From assembly GCF_003334765.1 (NCBI RefSeq), contig NZ_QOWT01000023.1: DNA of 64,000 nucleotides. One strand, given 5' to 3'. The first letter of the stretch is position 1. Each line of letters opens with the position of its first letter. This stretch comes from Escherichia coli (GTDB lineage Bacteria > Pseudomonadota > Gammaproteobacteria > Enterobacterales > Enterobacteriaceae). Under the pieces are notes generated by a model. That model saw only the letters and a program-made list of their open reading frames with translations. It made no database searches and was not told where the DNA came from. Positions 47,172 through 47,214 of this stretch are shown here, one piece after another. Position numbers and translations under genes: made by a program.

Positions 47172-47214
47172 TCCCCCTGCTAATTTTGCTAACCATTAGC
47201 AAAATTAGCAGGGG
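47172..47214. repeat. Perfect 20-bp inverted repeat (hairpin/cruciform) downstream of the 620-aa ORF
   Basis: CCCCCTGCTAATTTTGCTAA-cca-TTAGCAAAATTAGCAGGGGG; no adjacent T-run on either strand. Confidence 0.7.

Follow-up and report, generated by a model that had tools for sequence, protein, structure and literature searches.

We analyzed a 64-kb stretch of Escherichia coli DNA (hereafter, the window), which was 100% identical to strain NCTC9082 across the tested stretch, and focused on a palindrome at 47171-47217 within one of its islands. The palindrome lies after the stop codon of the island gene p620, at the beginning of a 1.37-kb gap. It is a perfect inverted repeat with 22-nt arms that are 100% complementary and a loop of CCA; the left arm (47171-47192) is ATCCCCCTGCTAATTTTGCTAA and the right arm (47196-47217) is TTAGCAAAATTAGCAGGGGGAT. 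An earlier note on this DNA had described a perfect 20-bp repeat with a 3-nt loop at 47172-47214. The repeat is real, but its stem is two pairs longer and those coordinates were one base low, as the 20-nt arms lie at 47173-47192 and 47196-47215. The distance of 38 nt given there, from the stop of the 620-amino-acid (aa) open reading frame (ORF) at 47134 to 47173, was correct. Each arm contains the pentamer TGCTA twice. The outer and inner units of the left arm (47178-47182 and 47187-47191, + strand) are 9 bp apart, and the inner and outer units of the right arm (47197-47201 and 47206-47210) read TAGCA, that is, TGCTA on the minus strand. A C precedes the first pentamer, as it does in 34 of 47 aligned loci, and a G follows the fourth.

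The island backbone is ordered int, DUF3987, alpA, p620, gap, Gp2 and PrimPol-SF2. A P4-type tyrosine integrase gene (42023-43240, + strand) marks the island end (RefSeq annotation and domain match). The DUF3987 gene (43410-44939, − strand) encodes a predicted MCM-like AAA+ helicase with a C-terminal winged helix (RefSeq; PHROG 'DNA helicase', E = 6e-39). Its start is overlapped by an alpA-type helix-turn-helix/excisionase-regulator gene (44911-45198, − strand; Pfam Phage_AlpA match on the homologue in locus L008, loci being numbered with an L). The backbone gene p620 (45299-47134, + strand) encodes 611 aa from the RefSeq start at 45299 and 620 aa as the full ORF (45272-47134). Beyond the gap lie a Gp2/YagK-YfjJ family gene (48510-49073, + strand), which has HUH-like motifs and encodes a possible second replication protein, and a gene for an archaeo-eukaryotic primase (AEP)-type primase-polymerase fused to a superfamily 2 (SF2) helicase (49228-51588, + strand; PADLOC PrimPol, E = 1e-143).

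We observed that the palindrome was the longest and the sole perfect short-loop inverted repeat in the window; the runner-up had 18-nt arms at 89%. Its arm matched only itself within the window, even at three mismatches (0/100 shuffles matched). The predicted RNA fold was very stable in a 126-nt context (−43.5 kcal/mol, z = −6.7), as was the DNA fold (−24.7 kcal/mol, z = −10.7; 0/200 shuffles equally good). A dispersed palindromic repeat (REP/BIME, ERIC or MITEs) or the end of an insertion sequence (IS) was rejected, as the palindrome was single-copy in each of 75 E. coli genomes and occurred once in the window. The two places per genome in the E. coli count are the two strands of the same palindrome. 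The first BLAST search gave a multi-copy signal, which was traced to the remnant of an IS21-family end lying 250 bp downstream. This remnant (47476-47562, within 47468-47570) is an 87-bp terminal end of an ISSso4-like element with two 23-bp direct repeats inside. It is flanked by the 8-bp direct repeat ATTATGTT, and neither O104:H4 nor L008 has it at the homologous locus. The core of the remnant matched 991 E. coli records, at up to 44 places per genome, beside istA/istB.

An intrinsic terminator was also rejected. The earlier note had held the repeat to be too long and too perfect for a plain terminator and to have no T-run on either strand, and this was confirmed. No contiguous T-run followed the stem on the + strand (tail ATTATCTATG) or the − strand (tail ATATAAAGAT); the immediate tails in the terminator test were AUUAUCUAUG and AUAUAAAGAU, respectively, and AGGGGGCAUGCAUG in L008. 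A lax terminator scan flagged the palindrome solely because 5/8 tail bases were T. The placement at a 3′ end in the sense orientation holds in the window, but about 20 related loci have the element 8-260 bp upstream of DUF3987 or alpA. The lack of a U-tract, the conserved stem motif and the variable position and orientation among relatives all argue against termination. Rfam gave no match at the palindrome at gathering thresholds, and below threshold only generic hairpin matches to miRNA precursors.

The palindrome was present in 75/75 genomes that hold the region, among 5,426 complete E. coli genomes. In an alignment of seven E. coli loci, the inner 17 bp of each arm were invariant. In the O104:H4 type, a C:G pair had become A:T by a double change, together with a one-base bulge at the outer end. 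The loop of strain S1-ESP-03-A (L004) was TGG at the equivalent of 47193-47195, an exact flip of CCA between otherwise identical arms, which is the mark that template switching or intramolecular inversion leaves in a perfect palindrome. A sister island family, found on hundreds of E. coli contigs, encodes a p620 that is 71% identical to that of the window. At the equivalent site it carries a different yet perfect palindrome, CTGCTATTGTTGCTAG-tcgg-CTAGCAACAATAGCAG, again with two TGCTA per arm 9 bp apart. Compared with the window, its arms differ at three positions, and all three (3/3) are compensated in the opposite arm. A decayed copy, CCTGCTATTTCCGCCATTAATAGCGGAATAGCC, lies in CP4-57 of E. 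coli K-12 MG1655 (L077, 3907-3945), between alpA and yfjI and ~65 bp before the yfjI start codon.

A search for the pattern TGCTA-N4-TGCTA-N3-10-TAGCA-N4-TAGCA in 100,044 species, each represented by a single genome, returned 65 loci, compared with ~2-5 expected by chance (our own rough estimate). About 45 of the 65 lie in islands that encode DUF3987, AlpA, Gp2 (YfjJ) or p620 homologues, and the hosts of these island-linked loci are Gamma- and Betaproteobacteria and one Parachlamydiales genome. The host range takes in Enterobacterales, Pseudomonas, Halomonas, Shewanella, Betaproteobacteria and the Parachlamydiales genome. Matches in Alistipes, Saprospiraceae and Anaerolineales and ~15 others were discarded as tandem-repeat tracts, a VapBC operator or chance (non-pairing spacers, housekeeping neighbours). 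We also assessed an unbiased sample of 18 DUF3987 loci from IMG/VR, fetched by protein similarity with a profile built from 8 closer sequences. Clear TGCTA arrays lay within ~600 bp of DUF3987 in 7/18 loci, and degenerate copies of the CP4-57 type lay in the alpA-DUF3987 gap in a further 7/18.

Across 47 aligned island-linked copies, the core anatomy was four (C)TGCTA pentamers, one pair direct and the other inverted, set in a 9-bp register. The four-position spacers between the pentamers vary among islands (ATTT in the window, TTGT in L008, and TTTC, TTCC, TTTT, CAGC and others). They were complementary between arms in 174/188 cells, with 69 double-sided changes, and the spacer covariation score of 0.312, compared to 0.107 for shuffled data, was reached in 0/500 shuffles. 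Past one C:G pair the flanks did not pair, and the loops (CCA, TGG, TCGG, CTAA and CACG, for example) were free in sequence and length (0-5 nt). In about one third of the loci, one to three spacer positions were unpaired and all four pentamers were retained. Extra in-register 9-bp units were present in L036 and L059 (4+2 units each) and in L026 (2+3 units). The most origin-like relative that we encountered was the IMG/VR contig L089. There, a DUF3987 fusion gene of 835 aa is followed, in the 330 bp past its stop (positions 2700-3020), by more than 15 YGCTACNGT units of 9 bp, which face both ways around a centre rich in A+T, and by a (CT)n tract. Several short in-register repeats, as expected of an iteron origin, were found throughout, with four in the window and 6 to more than 15 in relatives. 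The gain of extra units and the retention of pentamers without spacer pairing are the behaviour of iterons, unlike that of a transcript hairpin.

The position of the element relative to genes varied. In 11 loci it preceded the DUF3987 start by 8-27 bp; in others it lay 12-30 bp past the DUF3987 stop in four (L015, L026, L054 and L069), 100-800 bp past that stop in six and 75-260 bp upstream of alpA-DUF3987 in seven. In E. coli and related enterobacterial islands it followed p620, and it was found in either orientation among the loci. Variable position and the use of both orientations fit a cis site that is needed merely somewhere on the element, and fit neither a terminator nor a single-promoter operator.

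DUF3987 was the most constant neighbour of the element. It was present in 36/46 loci, in 13 of them within 30 bp, and was missing from just one wide-flank locus; most other loci without it have flanks too short to judge. AlpA and Gp2 were each missing from several wide-flank loci, and Gp2 was present in 25/46. The AlphaFold2 model of the window DUF3987 (predicted local distance difference test score, 85) had MCM2-7 and archaeal MCM as its best Foldseek matches, and residues 408-470 of the model form a winged helix. By this model, the protein resembles an AAA+ helicase of the MCM type whose C-terminal part is a winged helix. A PDB sequence search with DUF3987 and Gp2 gave nothing useful. Published work is consistent with a replication role: a DUF3987 protein of an integrated element was shown to be an oligomeric 5′-3′ helicase with an AEP primase-polymerase as its binding partner (PMC11724360), the family is predicted to supply the helicase for mobile-element replication (PMC5862659), and the DUF3987 'prim' gene is required for replication of PICMI satellites (PMC10803314).

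We performed Mantel tests of spacer distance against protein distance in 30 loci. Spacer distance was correlated with winged-helix distance (rho = 0.33, Mantel P = 0.0006). This correlation persisted when the ATPase core was controlled for (rho = 0.29, P = 0.0004), and the ATPase core had no independent signal when the winged helix was controlled for (rho = −0.02). A sliding 60-residue window peaked at residues 421-480 (rho = 0.35, P = 0.001), compared to 0.08-0.22 elsewhere. Gp2 distance was not correlated with spacer distance (rho = 0.08; 0.05 vs 0.35 for the winged helix in the shared set). This co-variation supports, rather than proves, recognition of the spacers by the winged helix. At iteron origins the repeats lie near an initiator or helicase gene and are matched to its protein; we found this here in both the linkage to DUF3987 and the spacer co-variation.

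From these observations we infer that DUF3987 binds the palindrome, loads there as a helicase and thereby initiates replication. We give somewhat better than even chances to the reading that the palindrome is the cognate site of the island's DUF3987 helicase and the core of the island replication origin. Following alpA/int-driven excision of the island, the four pentamers and the island-specific spacers would be read by the winged helix of the MCM-like DUF3987. The two-fold symmetry would allow two helicase assemblies to load head to head, and melting would then spread into the adjacent A+T-rich, T-rich tract (47236-47300), a candidate unwinding region in which 40-nt windows reach up to 82-85% A+T (rank against random island positions, P = 0.07); its T-richness is partly kept in L008. 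The island primase-polymerase would prime synthesis next. In relatives the site often directly precedes the helicase gene, which may therefore also be autoregulated through this binding. The wider palindrome family is probably an initiator/helicase-binding repeat array, and probably an origin, whose partner protein family has no DNA target named in the papers that we found. Our literature searches on DUF3987, yfjI/CP4-57, YagK/YfjJ and alpA with iterons found no account of the palindrome element.

Several points weigh against an origin read by DUF3987. In the window, the palindrome lies 2.2 kb from the DUF3987 gene, and many IS elements follow the island, which may no longer be mobile. The A+T-rich flank enrichment was weak across the family (median P = 0.29, 47 loci). 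There were no convincing DnaA boxes, only one-mismatch DnaA-like 9-mers, none of them adjoining the palindrome; to our knowledge, DnaA or host-factor sites are not needed by all iteron-type origins. The invariance of the pentamers in the genome-wide set arises by construction, since the search demanded TGCTA. The spacer adjoining the outermost pentamers is not conserved, so the arm symmetry may partly reflect hairpin formation or template-switch homogenisation rather than reading by a protein. The Mantel set comprised 30 related loci and a crude 4-nt spacer distance, and AlpA was also correlated with spacer distance (rho = 0.24, P = 0.014), equalling the winged helix in the 18 loci shared by the two (0.32 vs 0.34). 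The co-variation test alone therefore does not exclude AlpA. DUF3987 was found in only 30 of 72,556 plasmid records, all of them large, and had no match in a phage collection; given this near-absence from plasmids and phages, it is not a proven autonomous replicon. The literature search found no origin named for DUF3987 elements.

The correlation with AlpA bears on the leading alternative, which we consider unlikely: that the palindrome is an operator only. The pentamers would then be bound by an island protein (DUF3987, AlpA or another) that switches a neighbouring promoter on or off, and the site would play no part in replication. Paired half-site palindromes are typical of operators, the K-12 copy sits in the alpA-yfjI gap, and the ~20 loci with the palindrome 8-260 bp upstream have it before DUF3987 or the alpA-DUF3987 operon. 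These placements are offset by the palindromes 12-30 bp past the DUF3987 stop in the four loci listed above and by those after the p620 stop in the window, L008, L013, L031, L066 and L075. In the window, 1.3 kb separate the palindrome from the next annotated gene, and no promoter-like site was found beside it on the + strand. AlpA itself was missing from at least seven wide-flank loci, and the arrays of 6 to more than 15 units resemble iteron fields. Even as an operator only, the palindrome would still define the regulatory target of a widespread module.

We regard as improbable that the palindrome acts as an RNA hairpin. Its 22-bp stem would form in p620 read-out transcripts and mask the Shine-Dalgarno sequence of a small hydrophobic ORF (47224-47286, + strand), type I-toxin-like or a leader peptide; the stem might also stabilise or end the p620 mRNA, like fold-back read-through protection. 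This ORF is a doubtful gene of 20 codons (MSGKRKFYNSMISLFILFFN); its putative Shine-Dalgarno sequence, GGGGG, is in the right arm, and an ATG follows after 6-7 nt. Past the palindrome, ATGTCTG and an open hydrophobic ORF of 20 or 26 codons are retained in both E. coli island families (the 26-codon counterpart in the sister island is MSEKIKNRNTLIFILFAFCKYYLSFL), and the 20-codon ORF is open in all E. coli variants. In L023, L025 and L070 the outer TAGCAGG lies 6-7 nt before the DUF3987 start codon, and the stability of the RNA stem and the covarying arms would also fit a hairpin. However, the pentamer sequence is kept across bacterial classes, beyond what structure alone explains, the element occurs in both orientations and also upstream of promoters, and about a third of the loci have unpaired spacers. 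The window lacks a U-tract, and L008 has none whatsoever. The small ORF carries 5 non-synonymous and 3 synonymous changes between the window and O104:H4, which is near neutral. It falls in the most variable stretch of the alignment, is not kept in L013 or L075 and has no PHROG match, and T-rich tracts give hydrophobic ORFs by chance; the hairpin itself matched no Rfam family.

A rolling-circle origin of the HUH type has similarly poor prospects. Here, the palindrome would extrude as a cruciform, and Gp2/YfjJ would bind the repeats and nick nearby. Parvovirus Rep acts likewise at its GAGC repeats, binding them and nicking nearby. The alignment of the Gp2/YagK-YfjJ family keeps the motifs of an HUH single-strand endonuclease, H87xH89 (GLHIHFVGY), Y157xxK160 and E79, and in Pfam Gp2 gave weak matches only, to REP_ORF2-G2P and YagK_YfjJ_C. 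A perfect palindrome is able to form a stable DNA hairpin, and among the 25/46 loci with Gp2 the palindrome often lies between Gp2 and DUF3987. An HUH origin is hard to square with loops that vary freely and with flanks in which we saw no conserved nick-site or other motif in 47 loci, with the wide-flank loci that have no Gp2, and with the lack of correlation between Gp2 and spacer type. Enterobacterial Gp2 genes also have an upstream palindrome of their own, built from TATTACC/GGTAATA.

We assessed this region upstream of Gp2 separately. The ~330 bp preceding the gene (48180-48510) were more than 90% identical between island families whose p620 proteins share 71%. An imperfect palindrome, GTATTACCTCAT-cacag-TAATGcGGTAATAC, lies there at 48348-48378. 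Further enterobacterial loci also have TATTACC/GGTAATA pairs ahead of Gp2/yfjJ, with perfect arms of 13 nt in L088, L085 and L094 and of 12 nt in L008. This conserved stretch may be a second cis element or an RNA.

The weakest alternative, a functionless, self-perpetuating palindrome kept perfect by template-switch repair or else a plain strong terminator, is very improbable: mutational upkeep of perfect arms is possible and the loop flip in S1-ESP-03-A is the signature of an intramolecular event, but the family is conserved from Enterobacterales to Parachlamydiales with a fixed pentamer and a fixed gene partner, its spacers co-vary with a protein domain, and the features of a terminator are lacking.

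We also assessed the surroundings of p620, which the earlier note had treated as cargo, with the palindrome as a possible recombination site separating this cargo from a replication module. The island backbone block occurs at three or more chromosomal sites across strains (beside ycdU, clpA and a DUF2726 gene, among them), and p620 is therefore part of the backbone rather than cargo. Its product had no match in Pfam, NCBIfam, PHROGs or PADLOC, and at word-index level its family is nearly confined to E. coli, where the sister version is 71% identical. Homologues with 27-29% identity were found in Kluyvera, Xenorhabdus, Pseudescherichia and one more enterobacterial genome, each followed by a TGCTA palindrome; the p620 homologues with a palindrome after the gene are in L008, L013, L031, L066 and L075. 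In 3/3 loci whose available stretch covers that side, alpA lies beside the distant p620 homologue. The palindrome does not divide cargo from replication genes, because the gene of the co-varying DUF3987 helicase (43410-44939) lies on the opposite side of p620, and nothing supported a recombination site. Among the alternatives listed in the note, a protein operator and a cruciform-forming site came nearest, although the widespread four-TGCTA family went unseen. Absence from homologous loci, which the note had named as a refutation, was not borne out, since every homologous locus examined has the palindrome. Overall, our data confirm the observation of the palindrome and partly support its earlier interpretation.

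We made further observations elsewhere in the window. Despite the P4-type integrase gene that starts at 42023, ARAGORN found no tRNA genes anywhere in the window. Just upstream of this gene (41700-42022) are an isolated Rfam CRISPR-DR4 match (41718-41745) and a feature annotated by RefSeq as 'RtT sRNA' in identical strains. The island part downstream of the PrimPol gene (54682-55902) is heavily decayed, with Rfam matches to STnc100, STnc490 and a group II intron D1-D4 domain among IS66, IS3, IS200 and IS1 fragments.

Islands and satellites with int, alpA and DUF3987 are common in Proteobacteria and include those of enteropathogenic E. coli (EPEC) E2348/69 and O104:H4 as well as the K-12 cryptic prophage CP4-57. 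We tentatively propose, with less confidence than for the window itself, that the alpA-DUF3987 islands, a large class of integrative elements and phage satellites in bacteria to which PICMI-like satellites and CP4-57 belong, have the four-pentamer palindrome as their minimal origin, and that the MCM-like helicase recognises this origin by itself via its winged helix and loads as a head-to-head pair. If true, this would be a bacterial counterpart of the logic of polyomavirus site II and the MCM double hexamer, without a separate initiator protein, and perhaps an instance of an origin recognised directly by its own MCM-like helicase. The 47-bp candidate site opens direct experiments on binding, inter-island specificity and origin function, and the simple motif is a sequence signature for finding and typing int-alpA-DUF3987 elements.

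Among known systems, the palindrome shares with Rho-independent terminators a stem-loop right past a stop codon. It differs from them in its perfect 22-bp stem, the lack of a U-tract, the conservation of the stem across phyla and the frequent placement of its relatives upstream of genes, in either orientation. The combination of an AEP primase-polymerase with a DUF3987 helicase resembles AgaPP/AgaPH, where the helicase is a PriCT-DUF3987 protein; the authors of that work propose the module as the replication machinery of an integrated element and describe no cis site (PMC11724360). That system is from Bacteroidota and has a PriCT domain, whereas in the E. coli island the primase belongs to a PrimPol-SF2 fusion encoded separately, at a distance of 4 kb. 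The PICMI satellites share the core gene set of int, alpA and DUF3987 (= prim), and no origin or palindrome is named for them (PMC10803314). The Vibrio locus L045, which has int and alpA, carries a TGCTA palindrome. The E. coli island exceeds PICMI in size and differs from it in having p620, Gp2 and the PrimPol-helicase. We know of no helper phage of the E. coli island.

The α protein of phage P4 reads the octamers of ori and crr with a C-terminal winged helix, and SaPI/PICI elements have Rep-ori iterons. Like these systems, the DUF3987 islands have short repeats of element-specific sequence beside or just 3′ of a helicase-type initiator gene, a proposed C-terminal winged-helix reader and an integrated element that would replicate after excision. 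Unlike them, they use DUF3987 rather than a DUF927/superfamily 3 (SF3) protein or P4 α, their minimal form is one perfect palindrome rather than two blocks of direct repeats, and the position of the repeats relative to genes varies. In the core origin of simian virus 40 (SV40) and polyomaviruses, site II consists of four GAGGC pentanucleotides that are bound by large T antigen. Our system differs in its pentamer, TGCTA, and in the 9-bp register in place of adjacent pentamers. The helicase is an MCM-like AAA+ protein with a C-terminal winged helix rather than an SF3 helicase with an origin-binding domain, and the setting is an integrative element of a bacterial host. What the two sites share is a perfect palindrome, beside an A+T-rich tract, in which one pentanucleotide occurs four times as two inverted pairs. 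In both, a hexameric replicative helicase with head-to-head assembly would read the site through its DNA-binding domain; here, that helicase is proposed to be DUF3987.

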